Virus record (IMG/VR): IMGVR_UViG_3300036851_000137
Span: 1-51,037 of that record
Source: a virus
Taxonomy: Duplodnaviria; Caudoviricetes
Reading direction: 5' to 3' (one strand)
DNA length: 51,037 bases
Of the stretch, positions 4,151 through 27,093 are shown piece by piece. Positions within the stretch are counted from its first letter, which is position 1, and each line of letters begins with the position of its first letter. The translations under genes and the position numbers were made by a program. The notes under the pieces were generated by a model. It saw only the letters and a list, made by a program, of their open reading frames with translations. It made no database searches and was not told the origin of the DNA.

Positions 4151-4367
4151 TCACCAATTTCCGCGTAGCGAATGCGACCGCTGGAGAGAGTTGGTTGACG
4201 CGAACATCGCGCGGCAGGCGCACCCTCTCAATATCACCGTGACAATGCGCCACAAAGGTCAACTCATCCTCCGCTTCGTTTCTATAAGCAACCAACTCAT
4301 CAACCGGACGGTCACAGATTGCGCAACGCGGACGAAGGGCATTTAAAATCGCCAGATGGTCAGCCAT
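4134..4367 (-). CDS. Hypothetical protein (CxxC ... HCHG, possibly Zn-binding)
   Basis: Coupled to its neighbours through ATGGCTGA overlaps. Confidence 0.6.
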   Translation of the reverse strand: MADHLAILNALRPRCAICDRPVDELVAYRNEAEDELTFVAHCHGDIERVRLPRDVRVNQLSPAVAFATRKLVSATDG

Positions 4368-4584
4368 CGGCGCCATCACGTATCAAAAATTCGCGAAACG
4401 AGCGTTCTAAATCAGCTTCCGCCTTGTCGAAATCGCTATCAAATCGCTTATCCGCAATCATCCCGTCTTGCAGGTTCTCGTAAAGCGCCGACACACAAAG
4501 GAGAACGTCGCCGTCAGCCATCGGACCACCAGCACTGCGTTGCCTGCCCTGGACGCGACCGCCAATGTGTCGGCCGCTCATCAT
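4360..4584 (-). CDS. Hypothetical protein (start may be the ATG at 4521)
   Basis: ORF track; overlap coupling at both ends. Confidence 0.5.
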   Translation of the reverse strand: MMSGRHIGGRVQGRQRSAGGPMADGDVLLCVSALYENLQDGMIADKRFDSDFDKAEADLERSFREFLIRDGADG

Positions 4585-4587
4585 CCC

Positions 4588-4761
4588 CTAAATATCTACC
4601 CGCTGCGATTTCCACCCACTGACCATGAGATCTTCAACCCAGCAGCAAGCAGACGCCAAGCGACTAGTGCCTAGCCGCTCGTCAATCACGAAAAGATCGA
4701 TCACCGTCCCATCGGCTGGCGCTGCCTCGATTGGCCACCGACGCTGCACCACGTCAGCCAT
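4588..4761 (-). CDS. Small DUF551-like protein
   Basis: Translated by hand: MADVVQRRWPIEAAPADGTVIDLFV..., matching WxPIExAPxDGT. Confidence 0.55.
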   Translation of the reverse strand: MADVVQRRWPIEAAPADGTVIDLFVIDERLGTSRLASACCWVEDLMVSGWKSQRVDI

Positions 4762-9534: not shown

Positions 9535-9642
9535 TGGGTGACATGGGTGACATGGGTGACATGGATTTCGGTATTTTGTCTATAACGCGCATATAAAGCG
9601 AGTTTTGAAGATATCATGTCACCTCATGTCACCTTGTCACCC
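9535..9642. repeat. Iteron-like repeats, probable replication origin
   Basis: (TGGGTGACA)x3 at 9535-9561 faces three inverted TGTCACC copies at 9615-9642 across an AT-richer spacer, directly downstream of the primase-helicase. Confidence 0.7.
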
Positions 9643-9653
9643 GTCAGCATTGC

Positions 9654-11570
9654 TTACCTATTATAGGGGTCAGAGTAGGGGTCGCTGGTCTCGGGTTTAG
9701 GTTTCCATTCTTCCTTTAAATCCAAGCCCAAGCGGGACCAAACACCCTTCGCGCCACGGTGTGTTGCGAAGCCTTTTTCGTTCAGTTTTCCGCCGAATGT
9801 AGAACGCGATAGTTGTGTTTGCCCGGTCTCTGTACACCACTTTGTGTACACATCATACAGAGTATCCACACGGCACGAATAGGTATTTTGTATTTCTGTA
9901 CAGTCGGAGAGGAACCCGGCGACCAAATCCTGCTCGTAACGATACTGGCTCGTAGCGTTTTCTACGGCAACCGGCAGTTGTAATCCAATATCTTGCCAGT
10001 CGAGGCAGCCGCGCACGATCCATGCAAGGATTCCCGGCAATTCGGTCTGTAGGGTGTCTTTGAGGAGATCATCCTTGACTGGCTGCCCGAGGAGCGCCTT
10101 GTCGGGATCTAGGAATGTAACGAGGAAGGGGAGGAGGCGGATGCGGCGCCAGATGCCGTGATCGGTGCCGCGGATTTGCGGCTTGTGATTGGTCGCGAGC
10201 CAGAGCTTGAACTTTGGTGTGAATTCGAAAAATTCGTGGTGTAGGTAGCGGGCTGCCATCCGATCGCCGCCGGTAGCCTGCTTGATCAGGCTTTCGGCAA
10301 GGCGGTGTTCCTGATCGGTCTCGACGACGGAGACGAGGCGAGCGCCAGCGAGGCGTGCAATGTCGTTGGATATACCGCTACCGCCCTTGTCCTTTGCCGT
10401 GAAGGTATCGGATGGGCATTGGCGGGTGTAGTCGTCGAGTATGGCAGCGACGGTTTCGAGAAGGACGGATTTGCCGTTCGAGCCGGAGCCATGAAGGATA
10501 AAAATCACATGCTCGCGCGTGATGCCGGTCATTGAATAGCCGAGGGCGCGCTGGGTGAACGCGACCATTTCTGGATCATCGGCGAAGATCCCCGCGACGA
10601 AGCTATCCCAGGTCGGGCATAGCGCATCGGGATTGAAGACGACGGGCGACAGCTTGGTTATCAGATCGACTTGGGCATGGGCGCGGATGTTGCCGGAGCG
10701 TAGGTCGATTGTCCCGTTCAAGACGTTGAACAGCCACGGATCTTTATCGAGATCGTCGGCGGTGAGTGCCAAGTGTGGTTCAGCTTGGGACATCATCCCA
10801 GCGATACGGGCTGAATACCCCGAGCTGATCGCCCATTTTGCGCGAGCTTCTTGGGCTTTTGGATCAGCGAGAAATGCGACCTCGGCGAAGATGGCTTTCG
10901 CAGTTAGATGAGCGAAGCGTTTGACCGCGACCTCACCCTCATCAATCTTCCAGCGGCGCCCATCCCATGCATACCACCCGACGTTGACGACGTAGCGGAG
11001 CCGATCACCGAATTGATTGATGAGCCGCTGCGCGTTGCCGATGTCGTTCTGCTCGAATTGAGCCAGGTCGATCGCGGCTTCGGCGTTGTCTGGCAGGATT
11101 TCGCCGGTTTCTTGATCGTAGTGTCCGCTACCATTAGGGCGATGTTCATCGCGACGGCCGATGCGGGATATATCGAATGGCTGGGCTATGCCTGCAGTTA
11201 GGCCGCTGGCGATCGTCGCGCGGACCGCCTGCGGACCTTCGCGCCATAGCCCACAATCGGCACTTGCAGCCTCAAGAGTTTGCTCGACGGCGGCACGGGA
11301 GAGCACGCCGGCCCCGACGAAATGCCCGAGCGCCAGGGCTGCATTGTTGAGCGTCGCGTTGCGCGACCCTTCTCTCGCTGCGGCTACGCGTCGCTGCTCG
11401 TTTCGCAGGGCTGCGTCAACGTATCTGCCGATCAACTCGCTGTTATCACGATTGGTCTGGCGTGTAGGCGATGGCGGAGGTGCAGGAGGGTCTGGCCTCT
11501 TGACGATCAGGTCAATCAGCCATTCGGCGCAGGGTTGCGGCTTGTCAGTGGATTCCCGTTCCGCTGACAT
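9654..11570 (-). CDS. P4-family primase/SF3 helicase (PriCT, D5_N, ATPase)
   Basis: EGSRNATLN, NDIGNAQRL, WYAWDGRRW, Walker A GSGSNGKS, KQATGGD, ATNHKPQI, GIWRRI. Confidence 0.9.
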   Translation of the reverse strand: MSAERESTDKPQPCAEWLIDLIVKRPDPPAPPPSPTRQTNRDNSELIGRYVDAALRNEQRRVAAAREGSRNATLNNAALALGHFVGAGVLSRAAVEQTLEAASADCGLWREGPQAVRATIASGLTAGIAQPFDISRIGRRDEHRPNGSGHYDQETGEILPDNAEAAIDLAQFEQNDIGNAQRLINQFGDRLRYVVNVGWYAWDGRRWKIDEGEVAVKRFAHLTAKAIFAEVAFLADPKAQEARAKWAISSGYSARIAGMMSQAEPHLALTADDLDKDPWLFNVLNGTIDLRSGNIRAHAQVDLITKLSPVVFNPDALCPTWDSFVAGIFADDPEMVAFTQRALGYSMTGITREHVIFILHGSGSNGKSVLLETVAAILDDYTRQCPSDTFTAKDKGGSGISNDIARLAGARLVSVVETDQEHRLAESLIKQATGGDRMAARYLHHEFFEFTPKFKLWLATNHKPQIRGTDHGIWRRIRLLPFLVTFLDPDKALLGQPVKDDLLKDTLQTELPGILAWIVRGCLDWQDIGLQLPVAVENATSQYRYEQDLVAGFLSDCTEIQNTYSCRVDTLYDVYTKWCTETGQTQLSRSTFGGKLNEKGFATHRGAKGVWSRLGLDLKEEWKPKPETSDPYSDPYNR

Positions 11571-12066
11571 AGCACCGTCCTGATATGTGATTGCTCGGGG
11601 GGGCGATGACGTATCCGCCCTCACCCCGCACGTCTAAGCCTGGCCCGAGCGCATCGCTGCTGTTGGGGATTACGCGCCCATCAGTAGGCCAAGCGAAATA
11701 ATAATGCCAGCCCTGCCCACCAGTGCTAACCATCAAGGTAGTGGGAAGCCGGCTATGCGTGGCCTCAAGCTCGGCGAGGGCCGCAAGCCCACCCTTTGCT
11801 GGGTCGATGTCCAGCACCCATAGGCCGGATTTAGACCCGCACGCTATGGCAATGTTGGAGCGGGGCCAGCGCCGCCACCAACCCTTGATCTTGTTGATAT
11901 CGGTCGTGGCCGCTGATCCCCAGCGGACGCGCGGATGTTTACCTGCATTCTTGATGCATGTCGGATCGCCGCAGGCGCAACTGCGATCGGGCTTGACCTC
12001 GAAGGCTGGGAAGACGAGCCAACCATTCGCCGCATATGCCAGCGCGGCATCGAGAAGCGCGGACAC
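11545..12066 (-). CDS. Bifunctional primase-polymerase (Prim-Pol) domain; probably the frameshifted N-terminus of the helicase
   Basis: AALAYAANGWLVFP, GKHP, NIAIACG, VLDID, STGGQGWHYYF, LDVRGEGGYVIAPPS. Confidence 0.88.
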   Translation of the reverse strand: MSALLDAALAYAANGWLVFPAFEVKPDRSCACGDPTCIKNAGKHPRVRWGSAATTDINKIKGWWRRWPRSNIAIACGSKSGLWVLDIDPAKGGLAALAELEATHSRLPTTLMVSTGGQGWHYYFAWPTDGRVIPNSSDALGPGLDVRGEGGYVIAPPSNHISGRCYVSGTGIH

Positions 12067-19850: not shown

Positions 19851-20089
19851 TTCGACCGCGCGCTAAAGCATCCGGCCGGCCTCGGTTCGCACCGCATCTC
19901 GACGATGCGCAGGTCGACAAACAGCCCAAAGTCGCGAACGGCGGTCATGGCCTCACGGCATGTCGATAGGGACTTTGCGCAGATCGGCTCGGGTGCTGGC
20001 GGGGTAGTTATTAATTCATAATCCCCCGACCCCGCTGCCGCAACAACAAATGGAACGATGATTGATAGAAGGATAATTCTAAACAACAT
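19823..20089 (-). CDS. Small secreted Cys-rich protein
   Basis: Signal-like N-terminus MLFRIILLSIIVPFVVAAA; six Cys. Confidence 0.45.
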   Translation of the reverse strand: MLFRIILLSIIVPFVVAAAGSGDYELITTPPAPEPICAKSLSTCREAMTAVRDFGLFVDLRIVEMRCEPRPAGCFSARSNCIVGYSCR

Positions 20090-20666
20090 GGTGCCACTTC
20101 GTCCCATTGATGACACCCCAAACAGTGCCTTGGCAGACCCCAAATAGTTTTGCTATTTCACGTTGCGTTGCTTTAGTATTAGCAAGAATGCGTATCTTTC
20201 TCACGTCGTCGTCAGTGAGTTTTGCTTCTCCATGAGCCATACCTTTGCGACCGTCTCGCCCAAAATTAGGGTGCCGATTGCCCAACAACACGGTCCCATG
20301 TCGGTATCTGTCTGCCGTATTTTCTTTTGCTGTACCCCACCTGAGATTGGAAGGTGTGTTGTTTGCGCGCGCCCCATCATTGTGACACGCTTGGTGAGCG
20401 GGCGACGGACACGGACCAACAAATGCCTCTAAAACCAACGCGTGCACAGGGCGACGCTTTACTGTGGAGATCAGTCCGCTATAGATTTTGACATAAAGGT
20501 ATCCACCTCGACCTTTTGTGGGGCGCATCATTAGGCCGGGACGCGCTCCTCTTGGTAGCGAGCGAACACGTCCCAAATCGGAAACTTCATAGCGTCCATC
20601 ATGCCCAACGACAGATCGCCAATTTTCGGCGGTGCCGATCGCGGCGTAGGACGGGAGTGCGATCAT
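20079..20666 (-). CDS. NUMOD4/HNH homing endonuclease
   Basis: ENWRSVVG...YEVSDLGRVRS, VHALVLEAFVG, CHNDG...NNTPSNLRW, C-terminal HTH. Confidence 0.92.
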   Translation of the reverse strand: MIALPSYAAIGTAENWRSVVGHDGRYEVSDLGRVRSLPRGARPGLMMRPTKGRGGYLYVKIYSGLISTVKRRPVHALVLEAFVGPCPSPAHQACHNDGARANNTPSNLRWGTAKENTADRYRHGTVLLGNRHPNFGRDGRKGMAHGEAKLTDDDVRKIRILANTKATQREIAKLFGVCQGTVWGVINGTKWHHVV

Positions 20667-20808
20667 CGGGGTGCCAGGAATGCATTGCCGCGCGCCACTT
20701 GGCCCTTGGTCGGGCGGCGCGGTGGTACGTGTTTCGCCGGCTTGCGCGGCGGCTTCTTCGGGGATTTCATCAGTGTAGCACCTGACCCTTAATGTTTGTT
20801 ATGAGCAA

Positions 20809-21631
20809 TTATACGCCGCAGATGCCTTCGCACTCGTTGTTGAACAAATCGCCTTGCCCGCGCTCCGCATCTGACCTGATGTCGGCGTGTTCGAGAGGGA
20901 CAAGACTGCGGTGCAAAAACAATTCGCTCCGCGTCTTGCTGAAACCGGGGCGGGATAAGGCGATCAACCGCAATGGCGTCCTCCCACTCCGCAGGATTCT
21001 GGCGGATCTGTCGCCAATGCTCATTCGAGTGGTACGGGCAACCGATGCACGAGCTTTTGGCTGGCGTGGGGAACCCGTTGCGCTCCATCCAAAGGAGGCA
21101 GTCGCTGCGGCTTAGGCGTTTCTCAATAAGCGGCCAGCGTCGCTCAATCCACGCGAGCGGCCCTGGCTTGACGCGGTAGATTTCATCCATCGAAATGCCG
21201 ATCCACATTTCGATCTGCGGTGTTTTCGGTTGCCGTTGGCGCGGCTTGATCCCGAGCTTTTCCTTCATCCGGCGCTCGATGGGTTCGATCTTGTAATGAC
21301 CCGTGCATTGCCTTCGGAGCGGAGCCGCAACCCCTCCCTTTCCCGCGACGAAGAATGGCGCCGTCGCCGCTCGGCCTTGCCCTCGGATAGCCTCGCCACG
21401 GGCCAATTTGTCGATGTCCTCGCGAATGTTGCCCTGCCTGACGATTTCAATGGGGAACGGTAGGACATTTGGCGACATGAGCCAGCGGAGGTGATCGTAA
21501 ACCGTCGCGGGTTCCCATCCCGTATCGGCGAAGATGGCGCAATCCGGCATTGGTCCTATCTCACCCGCCGCCGCCATGAGGGCAAGCGTGGTCGATTGGA
21601 CGCCGGCGCCTAGCGATAGGATGCGGAGCAT
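20809..21631 (-). pseudogene. PAPS-reductase-like phage protein with a frameshift near 20950
   Basis: SLGAGVQST, FADTGWE, RQCT..YKI, KSSCIGCPYH; the expected C-terminus LFLHRSLVPL...NNECEGICGV is in another frame ending at 20809. Confidence 0.75.
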
Positions 21632-21650
21632 GGTCTGCCCTTAATCTTTT

Positions 21651-22235
21651 TTAACGGCCAGCGGCGGCGATGGCCGCTCGATATCGGCGCGCCGCCGCAC
21701 CGCGAGAGAACCTTGAAGGCGCAGGGATGTCGCGATTCGCACTCCAAGCGACCATGCTCATGCGACCTACTGCTGGCGCAATCTCGGCAGCTGGGATCAG
21801 GAACGGGACGAGATCCTTCCGCCACACATTGATTTGACGAGACCGCCTCCCGCCTCCCTGCTGCTGTGCGATGCAGCGATAGCCAAGCGCTCGCCAGAAA
21901 TCATTAGCATCGATGTCGAACGCGCATCGAAGCTGAATGGCCTCCGAGCCATCCGCGTCCGCCTCAAGCACCCGGATAAGTCCCTCGCCATACAGTCGCC
22001 GCCGCGCGTCGTATTGGATGCAAACCTGATGGCAAGAAACGATACCGCCGAAGGCTCCATGCCAGACGTAGCCGCACGGCTCGCCGCCGAGCAGCCCGAG
22101 CAAGATACGCCCGGCGCTCAGTTCGCGCTCAAACGTGACCCGTGGGTAGAATGACAACGCTGTGGCATTCTTCCGTTGAAGGCTATCCACATAGGTCAGC
22201 AGGTCCGGGTGCGCTCTGACGGCCACGAAATCCAT
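21651..22235 (-). CDS. GNAT-family acetyltransferase
   Basis: QYDARRRLYGEGL (acetyl-CoA motif A) and ANDFWRALGY. Confidence 0.75.
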   Translation of the reverse strand: MDFVAVRAHPDLLTYVDSLQRKNATALSFYPRVTFERELSAGRILLGLLGGEPCGYVWHGAFGGIVSCHQVCIQYDARRRLYGEGLIRVLEADADGSEAIQLRCAFDIDANDFWRALGYRCIAQQQGGGRRSRQINVWRKDLVPFLIPAAEIAPAVGRMSMVAWSANRDIPAPSRFSRGAAARRYRAAIAAAGR

Positions 22236-22240
22236 GACTG

Positions 22241-22540
22241 TTAATGATCTTTATCAGTAGGCGCAATTATTGGGTTCCTATACGACATCTCGGCGTACTT
22301 ACTCCATAACCCCTCCGCAACAATGAAACTCTCTGCCATAACAGCTCTAGTTTCAGCCATTTGATAATAGGGCATCTTGCGTCCGTTTAATAACTCGCGA
22401 ACAGCGACGACATACTCGTGCCCGTCCGGCGAGTCCCGCACTCCAAGCAACGAGCCGATATCCTCAATGATCGACCTAAGAATACGCTCTTGCGGCGGCA
22501 TTGTCGGATCTAGCAAATCAACGGATTTCATATTCCCCAT
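22241..22540 (-). CDS. Hypothetical protein
   Basis: Bracketed by boundary sites 22238 and 22548. Confidence 0.55.
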   Translation of the reverse strand: MGNMKSVDLLDPTMPPQERILRSIIEDIGSLLGVRDSPDGHEYVVAVRELLNGRKMPYYQMAETRAVMAESFIVAEGLWSKYAEMSYRNPIIAPTDKDH

Positions 22541-22563
22541 ACCTTTACCGAGAAGGATACTTA

Positions 22564-22776
22564 TCAACTAATTGGAACGTGAACGGCCTTGCGTGGGTCG
22601 CCCATCAATCGGCGCAATTCATCATTCGGATGATCCGCAGGTTCTGCTAACCCCCGTTCGATCAGATACCGCATCGCTGCCGCCCGCGTCGGAGGCACCG
22701 TCTGCCGCTGCCGCCACTCATCCACGCGGGCTAGAAGCTCCGGCGCAATCAGCATCTCAAAACGATTTTCTCTCAT
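22564..22776 (-). CDS. Ribbon-helix-helix regulator divergent from the RAMP-like operon
   Basis: MRENRFEMLIAPELLARVDEWRQRQ..PTRAAAMRYLIERGL. Confidence 0.8.
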   Translation of the reverse strand: MRENRFEMLIAPELLARVDEWRQRQTVPPTRAAAMRYLIERGLAEPADHPNDELRRLMGDPRKAVHVPIS

Positions 22777-22802
22777 GCCCGGCATGATACGGAATTTTCC
22801 GG

Positions 22803-22830
22803 TTGACGCAAGCCAAAAATCTGCTACGGT
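22803..22830 (+). promoter_or_regulatory. Putative promoter of the RAMP-like/guide operon
   Basis: TTGACG-16 nt-TACGGT; same -10 hexamer as the leftward promoter at 14936. Confidence 0.55.
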
Positions 22831-22843
22831 ACATTCCGTAACG

Positions 22844-22913
22844 TCATCAGAATGGCACGGCACACACGGGAGTAGCCTTGCACTGAATGGCATAGACTTC
22901 AGCGGAAAGGCTC
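22844..22913 (+). ncRNA. 5-nt-periodic leader tract (putative gapped guide RNA)
   Basis: 14 consecutive pentamers, all N[GA/CA/GC]NN: tcatc agaat ggcac ggcac acacg ggagt agcct tgcac tgaat ggcat agact tcagc ggaaa ggctc. Confidence 0.75.
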
Positions 22914-22917
22914 AACG

Positions 22918-23493
22918 ATGGACACGATAAAATTCCATTTCAAAGGCTCGGCGCCAGCAATGATGCAGAGCGAACGGTTGGCAAACCCAATCGACCCGTT
23001 GACGAAAACGCTCAAGGCGATCACTGGCAAGCGGAAAAAGACCGACGCTGATTACGAGGAAATCGCCCGCATCAAGTTTCTGGGGAGCCTCTACTATGAC
23101 GAAAGGCTCGGTCCATATTGGCCGGCTCAGAACGTTGACCGCATGTTCTACGATGCGGCGAAACTGTCAAGGCGTGGCCCGGACGTGAAGCGGGCATTCA
23201 TGACGCTCGATGACAAGATCCCCATTATCTACGAAGGTCCACGCACCCCCGAAGCCATGTATGCTGTGCGGGATCGCTTCGTCGATGAACGCTCGGTCGT
23301 AGTGCAAAAGTCGCGCATTATGATGACGCGGCCCATTTTCCGAGAATGGGAAATCAAATTTGAGGCAGCATATGATCCCGAGGTTATCAATCGGGATGAC
23401 GTGATCGCTTTCGCACAGTTGGCGGGGCAGATGATCGGTCTCTCGACCTATCGCCCCCGGTTCGGCCGGTTTCAAGTTGTGTCTGCGGAATAG
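22918..23493 (+). CDS. RAMP/Cas7-like RNA-binding protein (VIPR-like effector)
   Basis: N-terminal strand plus G.APAMM, YWPAQNV, TRPIFREWEI, and C-terminal Gly-rich loop GQMIGLSTYRPRFGRFQV; flanked on both sides by periodic non-coding arrays. Confidence 0.7.
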   Translation: MDTIKFHFKGSAPAMMQSERLANPIDPLTKTLKAITGKRKKTDADYEEIARIKFLGSLYYDERLGPYWPAQNVDRMFYDAAKLSRRGPDVKRAFMTLDDKIPIIYEGPRTPEAMYAVRDRFVDERSVVVQKSRIMMTRPIFREWEIKFEAAYDPEVINRDDVIAFAQLAGQMIGLSTYRPRFGRFQVVSAE

Positions 23494-23819
23494 CCGTGGC
23501 GAGGAATTGATAACCGAGGCACAGATAACATACAGGCGAGGGTAAAACAGCGGATTGGTTCATTACATAGGCGCGCACATGCGATGAATGCAGCCGATGA
23601 CACGGGCGACGAGATCATACGACGCCACGAGAGTCGATCAGCAATCAGGACAACGGATTGGTTTATCAAATTGGCGGTGATTACATTTGAGCCGACACGA
23701 AGCTACCGGACCCGATCACAGAGGATTGGTTTATTACATCGGAGCGGACCAGCAATGAGCAGTCGCATCTGCACTCAGCAGATCGCAAGTGATAACCGCA
23801 GAGTGGAAAGGAATGGGTT
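23493..23819 (+). ncRNA. Array of four 5-nt-periodic tracts separated by GGATTGGTTYATY
   Basis: Separators at 23552, 23655 and 23723, with a variant GGAATGGGTTAT at 23810; the pentamers between them fit N[GA/CA/GC]NN, with 17 of 17 at 23570-23654. Confidence 0.85.
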
Positions 23820-24323
23820 ATGTCAGAACACCTTTTGCAGCAATATCCGGCATGGCGCGAAGCGATCAAGGCATTCATGCAGGAGCGTTTCGCGGCTGGA
23901 GATACCGTAACGTTCGATTGGCTCTATGAACATTTCCTGATCCAGCGCCCCGCTGGCTCGACCTTGCTCGCCGATGCGCAGAAGGCCGAGTTGCAATTCC
24001 TTAGCCAGTTCAAGAACTTTGAGGATGCTCTTCTAACCGAACATCAAATCGCGTTGACCAACGTGCGCGGCGTCGGATACCGCATCGTGCCGGCGGCAGA
24101 GCAAACGCGATGGGCCGAAGAGGAGGGCGTCGGCCAAGTTAAGAAGGCGATCCGCAAACTCGGCGATCGGCTTACCAACGTTGATCTCGTGCAGATCACC
24201 AACGAGCAACGCAAGGAGAACGCCGACGCTCTCGCTCGCCTAGCAATGCTGTCAGGAATGGTCAAGAGCGCGGTAGAACGGAAGTCCGCGCTTGAAATCA
24301 AGAAGCCAAAAGGTGACTGTTAA
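23820..24323 (+). CDS. Accessory protein of the RAMP-like operon (possible winged helix plus helical tail)
   Basis: GGAAAGGA RBS; LTNVRGVGYRIV wing-like motif; stop lies in boundary site 24317. Confidence 0.75.
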   Translation: MSEHLLQQYPAWREAIKAFMQERFAAGDTVTFDWLYEHFLIQRPAGSTLLADAQKAELQFLSQFKNFEDALLTEHQIALTNVRGVGYRIVPAAEQTRWAEEEGVGQVKKAIRKLGDRLTNVDLVQITNEQRKENADALARLAMLSGMVKSAVERKSALEIKKPKGDC

Positions 24324-24724
24324 GTGTTCTTATCGGCAATCTGCCCTGTAATCCATGCATGCATTCGCGTAAAGCGATCCTCGGGTGTTTCTCGGGAGTA
24401 CCACTCATCGTTCAGCCACATGATTTCCGCAGCCAATGCCGGGGCAATGCCGAATCTGTCGGCAATCGTTTCTAGATCCTCGGGGTCAATCTCGCGCATG
24501 TTGACGCCGCGCGCCTTCCCGACCGCACCGATTGAGCATACTTCGCCTTCTTGTTCTAGTTCATTTTGGATAAGGCACTTGCGCTCCATGCCATCAAAGG
24601 CAACCAACATCTCTCGTAGGAACGCCTGTCCCTTTCTTCCTTTGATGGCGCTAGCAACAGCGCCCCGCCACCGGATCAGCGACCATTGATCGTCGTAATC
24701 TTCGCTATATCCCGACCGGCTCAT
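24320..24724 (-). CDS. Conserved phage hypothetical protein
   Basis: MSRSGYSED...WRGAVASAIKGRKGQAFLREM; bracketed by sites 24317 and 24732. Confidence 0.75.
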   Translation of the reverse strand: MSRSGYSEDYDDQWSLIRWRGAVASAIKGRKGQAFLREMLVAFDGMERKCLIQNELEQEGEVCSIGAVGKARGVNMREIDPEDLETIADRFGIAPALAAEIMWLNDEWYSRETPEDRFTRMHAWITGQIADKNT

Positions 24725-24751
24725 TGGCGTGTCCTTAAAGTTTATTAACAG

Positions 24752-25882
24752 TCAATCAGCCGCCACATCGGCAAACAAGGGGCACTCGTCCTTGATCCGC
24801 CGCCGCGCCATCTCAGCATAAATGGGGTTTAGTTCGATGCCTATTGCATTGCACACTAAGCGATCGGCAACGAGTAGCGTAGTCCCGGCTCCGGCGAATG
24901 GATCCAGCACCGTCCCGCCTGATGGCGAACCCGCACGAATGCACGGCTCAACCAAGGCCGGCGGGAATGTAGCGAAATGCGCCTCCGGAAACGGTTGCGC
25001 TCCCACAGTCCAAACCGACCGCTTATTGCGCGTCCCGAGAACGGTGTATTCCGATTCTAGGAAGATCGCTGTACGCCGATCATTGACATCGCTCACATCA
25101 TCCCTTGCCGCAGCCGAATGAGCACCCACAATGCGCCCCTCGGAGACAGTCGGCTCGGCAATCGCCGCCGCATCAAAATAGTACCGATCGCTCTTGCTCA
25201 GCAAGAATAGGTACTCGTGCGCCTTCGTGCAGCGGTCGGTGACACTTTCCGGCATCGGATTCGGCTTCGCCCAAATAATGTCCTGCCGGAGCCACCAGCC
25301 ATCGGCGCGCAACGCGAAGGCTAGCATCCACGGGATGCCGATCAGATCCTTGCCTTTGATGTCGCCGCCTACCGGACCAACGCCATCACGGTTGCGCTGC
25401 CCGCGTTCGTCAACGATTCCGTCAGCTGTGTTCGTCGCCTGCTTGCCTGCGTCAGGATTGCCACCCTTGCCGCTCCCCGCGTAGCTGTCGCCAATGTTGA
25501 GCCAGAGCGTGCCGTCACTCCGCAGCACGCGGCGGACCTCGTGGAACACTGCGACCATTGCCGCCACGTATTCGTCGGGCGTCGATTCGAGACCGAGTTG
25601 CGCGTCAATTCGGACGGCACCGCATTTCGCGCACGTCTGACCCTGAGGCATCGTGTGTGTTCTAACTTTCACGGTTTCGCTAGTGTAGCCCGCTAACGAA
25701 GACGACGACGACGCAAGAGCCATACCTTTATGATCGCACGCCGGGTCGCCGCCCTCCCACGAGGCGGTGCCGTAATCCCTCAACCCATAATACGGCGGCG
25801 AGGTCACACAGCAATGCACGCTCTCGGCCGGCAGCTTCGCCAGCTCGGTTAGCGCGTCGCCTGTGATGACGCGAACGGTCAT
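24752..25882 (-). CDS. DNA methyltransferase, beta class (N4-C/N6-A), SPPY
   Basis: VTSPPY, IIWAKPNPMPESV, HFATFP, VLDPFAGAGTT. Confidence 0.93.
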   Translation of the reverse strand: MTVRVITGDALTELAKLPAESVHCCVTSPPYYGLRDYGTASWEGGDPACDHKGMALASSSSSLAGYTSETVKVRTHTMPQGQTCAKCGAVRIDAQLGLESTPDEYVAAMVAVFHEVRRVLRSDGTLWLNIGDSYAGSGKGGNPDAGKQATNTADGIVDERGQRNRDGVGPVGGDIKGKDLIGIPWMLAFALRADGWWLRQDIIWAKPNPMPESVTDRCTKAHEYLFLLSKSDRYYFDAAAIAEPTVSEGRIVGAHSAAARDDVSDVNDRRTAIFLESEYTVLGTRNKRSVWTVGAQPFPEAHFATFPPALVEPCIRAGSPSGGTVLDPFAGAGTTLLVADRLVCNAIGIELNPIYAEMARRRIKDECPLFADVAAD

Positions 25883-27093
25883 AAGCCTTTGTCGCTTAGG
25901 AAAAAATCCGGCACCGGAGCGCCCGCTTTGACGCGCTCGCCAATCGCTTGGACGGCCAGATCATAGGACTCCTTGGAGTCGATCGCTTCGTCGAATGGGC
26001 GATGCTCAAACAGCGGTAATTTTGCGCGTTCCTGAGAGACGGCGGCAGTCCTGCCGCCGTCTCTCAGGGCACCAATGCCCTCTGGCTGATGCCGGTTCTT
26101 GGCGACAACGCTATGCCGCCCCTCCCCCTTATAGTGCGCCATGCGCTCGCGGATGTCGGCGACATAGGCATCCTCGCGCTCGATCAGGATCGCGTTACGT
26201 CCAGTCGCGAGTGCAGCAACTCCGGTCGTACCGCTGCCGGCGAACGGGTCGAGCAACAGGCCGCCAGGAGGACAGACCAGCGCGGCGAGCCACTTCATCA
26301 ACTCGACCGGCTTCACAGTCGGATGGCGGCTGCCCCAGCGGTCTTGCCGCCCAGCCTTAGCCGAGAAGAAGAAGCGAGCGGCCGATCCGCCGTCGTCTTT
26401 TCCGTTTCGCTTGGCTGCGACACTGGCCGCGCTATCGGGGAACGCCACCAGCACCTCGTCGGAACCGTCGTGACAGATGTTCGCGGGCCAGCGGCCGACG
26501 TTAGGATCGAGGTCGGCATTGACGCCAACCATTCGAGAAAACGGCGCATTGCCGTTTGGGGTTTTGTCCTTCGACAAACTCGCTGGCACGCCTCGGGACA
26601 CGCCGATCCGGCACTCATCGATCTGCATCATCCGCTTGCCGCCCGGCTTGTAGGCGAGAACCAGTGGCTCGTAGGCGGGTTTTAGCATGTCCCGACGCTT
26701 GGGAAACCCGGTCGCGAATAGCCACATAATGCAATCCTGAATGACGAACCCGCCATCCTCGATCGCACACGCCAGCCGGTGATAGGTGCGGGTGCCGCCG
26801 AACGCGACAAGGAACGCGCCAGGGCGCAGGATCGTCGCTACCGTGGCCCATGTCTCAGGGCGGAAGGCGATGTCGCCACCGTCCCATTGCTGACCCATGA
26901 AGCCGCCTGAGAGGCGTACCATAGCGCCATCGCGACCGTGCTGAGCCGGAGCCGCATCGACCGCGCCAAAGCGCTTCTGCGTTGCCGTCAAGTGATAGGG
27001 TGGATCTGTCACGATCGCATCGCACGCCACGCCCTCTACGACGAGACGCGGGATCGCTTCTAGCATGTCGGCATGTTCGATGCGGATGGTCAT
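25879..27093 (-). CDS. DNA methyltransferase, beta class (N6-A), DPPY
   Basis: VTDPPY, GRWPAN, HPTVKP, LLDPFAGSGTT. Confidence 0.92.
   Translation of the reverse strand: MTIRIEHADMLEAIPRLVVEGVACDAIVTDPPYHLTATQKRFGAVDAAPAQHGRDGAMVRLSGGFMGQQWDGGDIAFRPETWATVATILRPGAFLVAFGGTRTYHRLACAIEDGGFVIQDCIMWLFATGFPKRRDMLKPAYEPLVLAYKPGGKRMMQIDECRIGVSRGVPASLSKDKTPNGNAPFSRMVGVNADLDPNVGRWPANICHDGSDEVLVAFPDSAASVAAKRNGKDDGGSAARFFFSAKAGRQDRWGSRHPTVKPVELMKWLAALVCPPGGLLLDPFAGSGTTGVAALATGRNAILIEREDAYVADIRERMAHYKGEGRHSVVAKNRHQPEGIGALRDGGRTAAVSQERAKLPLFEHRPFDEAIDSKESYDLAVQAIGERVKAGAPVPDFFLSDKGL

Follow-up and report, generated by a model that had tools for sequence, protein, structure and literature searches.

A VIPR locus in a 51-kb soil phage carries a putative guide aimed at IS1-family-like transposase genes

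The DNA analyzed here (referred to below as the window) is the complete virus record IMGVR_UViG_3300036851_000137 (51,037 bp, 59% G+C), a 51-kb soil phage carrying a VIPR (Viral Interference Programmable Repeat) locus. Between two plus-strand genes of this phage, at 22918-23493 and 23820-24323, lies a noncoding stretch of 326 nt that holds four guide-like tracts, the fourth of which (tract 4) is the main subject of this work. In tract 4, the 13 to 14 dinucleotides are the complement of the first and second codon positions on the coding strand of the transposase motif A-Y-L-E-A-V-E-(E/D)-A-F-G-A-D, an agreement that goes far beyond what chance would give. We read tract 4 as the guide segment of a fourth vrRNA, belonging to a phage VIPR system and aimed at transposase genes similar to those of the insertion sequence (IS) family IS1, a reading to which we give a probability of about 0.8. 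The locus is a VIPR of the known kind, and it represents a new member with an unusual backbone motif and a target set that we did not find described in the main texts searched.

VIPR, which has been in print since April 2026, is a CRISPR-like system in which two bases out of three are read in the DNA. As described in the 2026 preprints, a minimal VIPR locus has two genes, for a RAMP protein of ~20 kDa (Vipr) and for an accessory protein (Vap), together with vrRNAs made of 9 to 16 YNNGG units and a 3' tail (10.64898/2026.04.26.720920). Each unit is bound by one Vipr protomer, with GGY being hidden and NN being presented (10.64898/2026.04.26.720920, 10.64898/2026.04.26.720927). The target is double-stranded DNA (dsDNA) read as NN-x-NN-x on either strand without a protospacer-adjacent motif, the skipped base usually falling on the codon wobble position, and the outcome is transcriptional silencing, as was shown experimentally for the SUSP1 and P. 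fulva VIPRs (10.64898/2026.04.26.720920).

Tract 4 was read on the plus strand from position 23739 as TCgga GCgga CCagc AAtga GCag TCgca TCtgc ACtca GCaga TCgca AGtga TAacc GCaga GTgga, with the variable dinucleotides (NN) in capitals. It thus contains 14 NN pairs, and a single spacer of 2 nt gives rise to AGTC at 23761-23764. Reverse complementation turns the NN series into AC GC TA CT GA GC GT GA GA GC TT GG GC GA. When these dinucleotides are taken as codon bases 1 and 2, with one base skipped per pair, they decode to T-A-Y-L-E-A-V-E-E-A-F-G-A-D. An earlier note on this DNA, made from the sequence alone, had given precisely this peptide and had placed the AGTC at 23761, and our rereading agreed with it in full.

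The same note had proposed a gapped search with the decoded series, and a search of this kind returned at least 120 genomic and 17 viral loci, nearly all of them in IS1-family-like transposases. The pattern used, GCNTANCTNGANGCNGTNGANNNNGCNTTNGG, consisted of ten dinucleotides with single-base gaps, i.e., 20 specified bases, and left one codon free; in a collection of bacterial genomes it matched at least 120 loci, with about 1 expected by chance according to our own arithmetic. Among the matches listed, 88 of 90 translations contained ...RVQLTTDG(H/L)xAYL(E/D)AVExAFGxD(V/I)DYAxLxKxYG... (a few of the genes being broken), the site lay in an unrelated protein in the two exceptions (L026 and L069), and a homologous open reading frame (ORF) of ~290 amino acids (aa) was present at the site in 112 of 120 loci. 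A test of the full 28-base pattern with a reversed control is not circular. With up to 3 mismatches allowed, 13 of 401 Alphaproteobacteria genomes contained matches to the full pattern, 15 in all, compared to none for the reversed pattern. On viral contigs, the pattern with a 1-nt skip gave 17 matches at 24 to 26 of 28 bases, all 17 in the same gene, compared to none for the 0-skip pattern, none for the 2-skip pattern and 1 for the reversed pattern.

The quality of the match was then quantified over the whole guide. At 117 sites among the matches listed, guide 4 matched 23, 24, 25, 26 and 27 of 28 bases in 9, 21, 56, 26 and 5 cases, respectively. These 23 to 27 of 28 NN bases correspond to 82 to 96%, above the 80% criterion of the VIPR papers. 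In the tail-adjacent unit (GT, pairing with AC), the second base was mismatched at 116 of 119 sites among the matches listed, and the remaining 13 units were matched at 26 of 26 bases in six loci. All target matches of guide 4 were in frame, with the skipped base on the codon wobble. The 136 target sites collected were 136 different 41-mers with a mean pairwise identity of 0.39 at the skipped positions, while the 20 read bases are shared because the search pattern fixed them. Since the skipped bases fall on wobble positions, one gapped guide covers genes that differ at almost every synonymous site.

The match was specific to guide 4. When 14 guides were compared with ~1 Mb of target loci, only guide 4 matched the gene, and it did so in 126 of 126 loci. 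Ten guides from the related loci L136 and L137 gave no match in the IS1-like gene and a single 18/20 match elsewhere, in L046. The earlier note had stated that the transposases are missing from the window, and indeed no target site was found there: the 51-kb phage contained no self-target at up to 3 mismatches, and no guide reached 80% on the window. VIPRs lacking a self-target are reported in the VIPR preprints.

We next considered the identity of the targeted gene. The claim that the decoded peptide is a conserved motif of IS1-family-like DDE transposases was borne out by profile searches. On Pfam DDE_Tnp_IS1 (cut-off, 24.1 bits), the target ORFs of L005 and L010 scored 30.1 and 27.8 bits, and that of L233 scored 23.8 bits. 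With NCBIfam transpos_IS1, scores of 71.6 and 59.8 bits were obtained (E value of 8e-20), which lie under the curated cut-off of 100, and we therefore use the wording "IS1-family-like". The target proteins are ~300 aa long and contain ...TTDGHxAYLEAVEGAFGAD..., with TTDG before the motif; its D is presumably the second catalytic Asp of the DDE triad, as IS1, IS6 and IS1595 motifs would suggest. A genuine insertion sequence carries the target in genome G160, where it is present as two 1947-bp copies that are 99.95% identical and have perfect 16-bp terminal inverted repeats (GGTAGTGGTACAGTTT). This element (L233, 1552-3498) extends ~1 kb beyond the transposase gene, with ORFs of 103 to 174 aa in which Pfam detected no confident family. 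The target gene was single copy in 4 of 5 other genomes checked. The genes next to it differ between loci, and among them are mobile-element genes, an HTH-M78 peptidase (ImmA/IrrE-like) and a P63C-domain protein.

The assignment of the locus to VIPR is based on the match of its first gene product to a solved Vipr, on a vap homologue next to vipr and on relatives that lie beside period-5 arrays. The 191-aa protein matched PDB entry 36pp_D ("SUSP1 Vipr protein") with a phmmer E value of 9.3e-35 over residues 5-187 of both proteins, and it is 35% identical to the Vipr of the Felixounavirus phage PHB11. The Vipr family comprises 2412 cluster representatives at an E value of ≤1e-3. Of the published contact residues (10.64898/2026.04.26.720927), R138, R179, K33, R39 and K82 are kept here. 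The 167-aa Vap is 27.6% identical to the product of a 146-aa gene directly after vipr in PHB11, on both sides of which NN-GGT arrays are found; we infer that this PHB11 gene is the published vap1. Sequence searches of the 167-aa Vap in Pfam and PDB gave no match, and an AlphaFold2 model computed without an alignment was unusable (predicted local distance difference test score of 45.9).

Relatives of Vipr in 89 viral loci adjoin period-5 arrays on the same strand, mostly of the NN-GGC or NN-GGT type; the canonical NN-GGY arrays belong to the more distant relatives. In the relatives L136 and L137, whose Viprs are 64 to 66% identical to the one studied here, the arrays are of the NN-xGA type (mostly TGA, GGA, CGA and AGA), and every guide ends with the same GGATTGGTTTAT core as tail 1. 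Besides its N-G-A-type VIPR locus, L136 contains a long canonical NN-GGC array at 4330-4640, ~0.6 kb downstream of vap, which may represent orphan vrRNAs for another Vipr, such as those reported for other phages (10.64898/2026.10.15.759431). In L123 to L128, NN-GGY tracts downstream of vipr are parted by ~60-nt hairpin-rich elements with CTGATGA. These elements resemble the hammerhead-interspersed arrays mentioned in 10.64898/2026.04.26.720920, and Rfam at its gathering score found no family in L123, L126 and L127.

The locus is organized as follows, all features being on the plus strand.

22918-23493, plus strand: vipr gene, 191 aa, RAMP-like protein predicted to polymerize on guide RNA (phrog_4652).
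23496-23549, plus strand: vrRNA1 guide tract, about 10 to 11 units including one 4-nt unit (TAac); NN series is the sense of E-I-(Y/D)-E-T-Y-I-G-G-K.
23550-23567, plus strand: tail 1 (GCGGATTGGTTCATTACA), conserved 3' element; direct-repeat family D1, 3 copies.
23568-23652, plus strand: vrRNA2 guide tract, 17 units; sense of Y-A-x-E-(I/M)-A-W-R-E-D-Y-R-R-V-S-N-G.
23653-23670, plus strand: tail 2 (ACGGATTGGTTTATCAAA), direct-repeat copy.
23671-23720, plus strand: vrRNA3 guide tract, about 10 units; antisense of D-G-G-L-W-A-N-N-P.
23721-23738, plus strand: tail 3 (GAGGATTGGTTTATTACA), direct-repeat copy.
23739-23804, plus strand: putative vrRNA4 guide tract, 14 units including one 4-nt unit (GCag, 23759-23762); antisense of (T)-A-Y-L-E-A-V-E-E-A-F-G-A-D of IS1-family-like transposase.
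23805-23825, plus strand: degenerate fourth tail, overlapping the ribosome-binding region and the ATG of vap.
23820-24323, plus strand: vap gene, 167 aa, VIPR accessory protein (phrog_5926).

The tracts are separated by three direct repeats, ACAnnGGATTGGTTyATyAmAT, at 23547, 23650 and 23718, and the three ~18-nt tails share GGATTGGTTyAT. With no structure analysis aimed at the tails, a weak hairpin that takes in guide bases was the one structure observed. At 23810-23825, the sequence GGAATGGGTTATGTCA is the same as tail 3 at 12 of 16 positions by hand count. The lag-5 periodicity of 23494-23819 had a z score of 4.3, a value reached by none of 2000 mononucleotide shuffles, and the 8 strongest of 2029 lag-5 windows along the phage all overlap the array region. 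In the 46 regular units, position 1 of the constant trinucleotide was A in 14, C in 10, G in 11 and T in 11; position 2 was G in 28, C in 16 and T in 2; and position 3 was A in 38 and C in 8. One 4-nt unit is found in guide 1 and another in guide 4 (with the constant part reduced to A-C and A-G, respectively, the final A being missing), yet their target register is kept.

The other three guides were matched to targets as well. Guide 1 is the sense of AEIDETYIGGK in an IS1595-family transposase of L090 (19 of 20 bases; Pfam DDE_Tnp_IS1595, 143 bits), the only target locus seen for this guide. A metagenome scan with 10 units of guide 2 gave 8 matches, 7 of which were in IS1595-family transposases at 30 to 31 of 32 NN bases (Pfam DDE_Tnp_IS1595, 131 bits); the eighth fell in an unrelated ORF at 22 of 32. 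The targets of guides 1 and 2 thus belong to two groups of IS1595-family (ISXO2-like) transposases, with the motifs EIDETYIGGK and YAxEMAWREDYRRVSNG, respectively. For guide 3, all 9 matches on viral contigs were in frame and in one ORF family with D-G-G-L-W-A-N-N-P. Three of these ORFs were scanned and were found to encode patatin-like phospholipases (Pfam Patatin, 81 to 106 bits), which also matched the PADLOC model "Effector, Phospholipase" with E values of 2e-55 to 4e-93. We take these PADLOC models to describe the effector of CBASS (cyclic oligonucleotide-based antiphage signaling system). Guide 3 could provide RNA-guided silencing of a defense effector.

Three of the four guides, then, match DDE transposases (the IS1-like group and the two IS1595 groups), in agreement with the earlier proposal that the phage aims this system at insertion sequences. 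Guides 1 and 2 are sense to their targets and guides 3 and 4 are antisense, so that DNA alone can serve all four as a target. The use of both strands had already been noticed and taken to favor dsDNA, and it corresponds to what is described for SUSP1, for which silencing from either strand was shown (10.64898/2026.04.26.720920).

By analogy to SUSP1, the array (23496-23825) would be transcribed on the plus strand together with vipr and vap. One Vipr protomer would bind each 5-nt unit, hold N-[G/C]-A and present the two variable bases; the resulting filament would pair its dinucleotides with dsDNA, every third target base being skipped, and an R-loop triplex would form and block transcription. 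In the infected cell, the complex would presumably sit on IS1-like transposase genes and silence them. Taken as a whole, the array resembles a cassette for switching off host-borne genes of mobile elements and of defense at codons that these genes cannot change.

Several observations weigh against this interpretation. The constant trinucleotide is N-[G/C]-A and not GGY, and its best-kept base is a purine (A, 38 of 46 units) at the position where the SUSP1 pocket is reported to exclude purines (10.64898/2026.04.26.720927). The residues H17, D177 and W178, which contact GGY, are replaced here by Q, T and Y. Where a filament has one protomer for every 5 nt, a 4-nt unit in the middle of the guide may be disruptive. 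The start of vap is overlapped by the fourth tail, which is degenerate, and a scan for sigma-70-like promoters found no site in 22400-24500. At the level of the target, none of the loci examined showed a 28/28 match, 5 loci coming closest with 27/28; the guide reads GA at the ninth residue, for which the family consensus is G (GGN), so that one base is lost; and no guide-2 site was found in five genomes with perfect 13-unit guide-4 sites. Finally, for a phage with no integrase detected among 30 ORFs scanned, there is no evident reason to silence transposases.

As for the changed motif, 10.64898/2026.04.26.720920 allows "a related consensus" besides GGY, and the departure from GGY therefore does not exclude membership in VIPR. 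Noncanonical units of the types NNNGG, YNNNG and NNNNG are reported there, and 10.64898/2026.10.21.760802 reports GAC/NN, CAC/NN, WGT/NN and TGH/NN clusters. With such strings already in print, the motif seen here is not new in kind. Q17 and T177 were considered as the cause of the lost GG and were ruled out, since L138, L163, L165, L191 and L209 have Q17/T177 together with GGC arrays. Instead of G176, S176 goes with A at the third constant position in the window, L136 and L137, and also in L160, L161, L178 and L185 (GGA/NN), a correlation that extends over a few clades only. The last four loci form an S176 Vipr clade (key residues HENRILSDWR) with NN-GGA arrays on both sides of vipr.

Among the alternatives, the one that survives best accepts tract 4 as a working VIPR guide and takes the motif as an address for prophages, satellites, plasmids, defense islands or cotranscribed cargo, with silencing of transposition not being the point. 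We regard this explanation as possible, albeit on the unlikely side. It is in line with the presence of the targeted gene on 17 viral or proviral contigs, with neighbors such as the HTH-M78 peptidase and the P63C-domain protein, both typical of mobile elements, and with the ~1 kb of unannotated extra sequence in the G160 insertion sequence. Guide 3, being aimed at a defense-type phospholipase, fits as well, and the published VIPRs target the recombinases of competitors (10.64898/2026.10.15.759431). However, in L005 the neighbor is upstream of the transposase on the same strand, and a block inside the transposase would thus not stop it. Moreover, the neighbors are not conserved, given that the largest flanking cluster was present in 20 of 120 loci among the matches listed, and the gene is single copy in 4 of 5 genomes checked.

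It is improbable, in our view, that tract 4 is a decaying or inactive guide whose transposase match is the fossil of a past function. The 1-nt loss in the unit at 23759-23762, the fourth tail with only 12 of 16 positions like the others (hand count), the mismatched last unit and a best match of 27/28, never 28/28, would all be expected of such a guide. Against decay, both halves of guide 4 match one motif in one codon register. In addition, guide 1 has a similar 4-nt unit and is still in register at 19 of 20 bases, which suggests that 4-nt units are tolerated rather than being a sign of decay. A second assembly of the likely source run was identical over 23300-24000 at a depth of 12.4, although it derives from the same reads and is thus not independent biological evidence.

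An action of the guides on transposase mRNA instead of DNA appears very improbable. Guides 3 and 4 are antisense to their mRNAs, and Vipr-vrRNA is reported to be able to pair with single-stranded RNA (10.64898/2026.04.26.720927). In the same study, however, filaments on RNA targets were mostly incomplete and no triplex was formed; guides 1 and 2, being in the sense of their mRNAs, are unable to pair with them; and SUSP1 silencing worked from either strand (10.64898/2026.04.26.720920). The last explanation, that the tract is no guide but a period-5 protein-binding RNA similar to a TRAP or CsrA sponge, or a set of DNA iterons, with a coincidental peptide match, can be dismissed: TRAP sites likewise have a period of 5 with a conserved core of 2 to 3 nt and 2-nt spacers, and the three direct repeats could pass for iterons, but the 0-skip, 2-skip and reversed controls refute it (at least 137 loci versus 0 to 1 in controls), the NN bases between the constant triplets carry information and the neighboring protein is a Vipr.

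A silencing guide against IS1-family-like transposase genes thus remains our preferred interpretation of tract 4. We extend it only tentatively, and at rather less than even odds, to the proposal that the VIPR of this phage is a broad silencer of host genes, not of rival phages or satellites, that combines counter-defense with protection from insertion sequences, uses its guides like degenerate primers across bacterial phyla and relies on N-[G/C]-A as a distinct reading of the backbone. In this view, all four guides would be placed on wobble-aligned codons of motifs that can hardly change, in three DDE transposase families and a CBASS-type patatin effector, and the distinct reading would include a purine at the position from which SUSP1 bars it and tolerance of 4-nt units. 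Targeting of IS transposases of two families and of a defense-type phospholipase would widen the role of VIPR from virus-virus conflict to mobile elements and immunity of the host. A close homologue of the solved SUSP1 Vipr that goes with another backbone motif constitutes a natural experiment on recognition of the constant trinucleotide, and in-register guides with a 4-nt unit bear on the design rules for reprogramming. The 136 different 41-mers under one guide make a clear case for the value of a gapped code, since a contiguous guide could not cover them. The earlier note had deduced from the sequence alone that NN is read, that the wobble base is skipped, that both strands are used and that DNA is the target. 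This is the published VIPR code, and its rederivation is a useful validation of such a reading.

Elsewhere in the window, genes for a portal protein, large terminase, primase, Erf-like annealing protein, two DNA methyltransferases and HNH endonucleases were identified. The nearest cultured portal proteins are 38 to 45% identical and come from Microcystis, Rhizobium and Paracoccus phages. On one side of the VIPR locus, minus-strand genes at 20079-22893 encode a NUMOD4-HNH endonuclease, a PAPS-reductase-like protein, a protein with a weak GNAT hit and a repressor-like protein; on the other side, two adjacent N6/N4 DNA methyltransferases are encoded on the minus strand at 24320-27093. The genes around the locus are probably an anti-restriction and accessory cluster. 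Rfam detected no family at an E value of ≤1 in 22500-24500. The gap that precedes the primase gene (9654-11624, minus strand) holds 3.3 copies of TGGGTGACA at 9535-9564 and, 50 nt further, 2 to 3 copies of the inverted form ATGTCACC at 9614-9641. These repeats may be an operator or an origin.

The locus was finally compared with known systems. CRISPR guides pair 5 of 6 bases one-to-one, whereas here 2 of 5 guide bases would pair with 2 of 3 target bases. Class 1 CRISPR backbones (Cas7 of Cascade, Csm/Cmr) are alike in that, according to the VIPR preprints, RAMP-fold protomers polymerize along a guide RNA and a thumb interrupts pairing periodically; unlike in CRISPR, neither spacer-acquisition genes nor CRISPR repeats are present here. 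TRAP sites are RNA with a period of ~5 nt, a conserved triplet and 2-nt spacers. The spacers of TRAP sites are without information and the protein is an 11-mer ring. In the present locus, by contrast, it is the spacers that make up the code, and the protein is, by homology, a RAMP filament.

Noncanonical VIPR arrays are alike in having a period of 5 beside a Vipr-like fold and a constant part other than GGY, some positions of which are degenerate. No noncanonical consensus string in the accessible text of these reports equals N-[G/C]-A as written, although their figures may overlap with it, and the motifs of L136 and L137 could fall under the reported "TGH/NN". In the main texts of 10.64898/2026.04.26.720920 and 10.64898/2026.10.15.759431 we found no IS or transposase target, although the supplements of the former and of 10.64898/2026.10.21.760802 may list such targets or this repeat consensus, and in these two main texts "insertion sequence" is absent and "transposase" occurs once, with respect to Cas1.

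The closest known system is the SUSP1-type Type II VIPR of Felixounavirus (10.64898/2026.04.26.720920, 10.64898/2026.04.26.720927 and 10.64898/2026.10.15.759431). It differs in its GGY backbone, compared to N-[G/C]-A here, and in the residues H17, D177 and W178, compared to Q, T and Y. In the phage studied here, all four vrRNAs lie between vipr and vap, two guides contain 4-nt units, and the tail is ~18 nt long with no pseudoknot evident by reading (its structure was not analyzed), whereas the tail of the SUSP1 clade is a pseudoknot. The target classes differ too, being IS DDE transposases and a patatin phospholipase here and a satellite serine recombinase, prophage regulators and other VIPRs in SUSP1-type systems. 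In both cases, however, Vipr and Vap are homologous, several vrRNAs of pentanucleotide units are each followed by a 3' tail (three conserved copies and a degenerate one in the present locus), and NN matches its targets with a 1-nt skip on the wobble position, on either strand and without a self-target. Like the SUSP1-type system, the present one matches the codons of what is presumably a catalytic motif in the recombinase of a mobile element.

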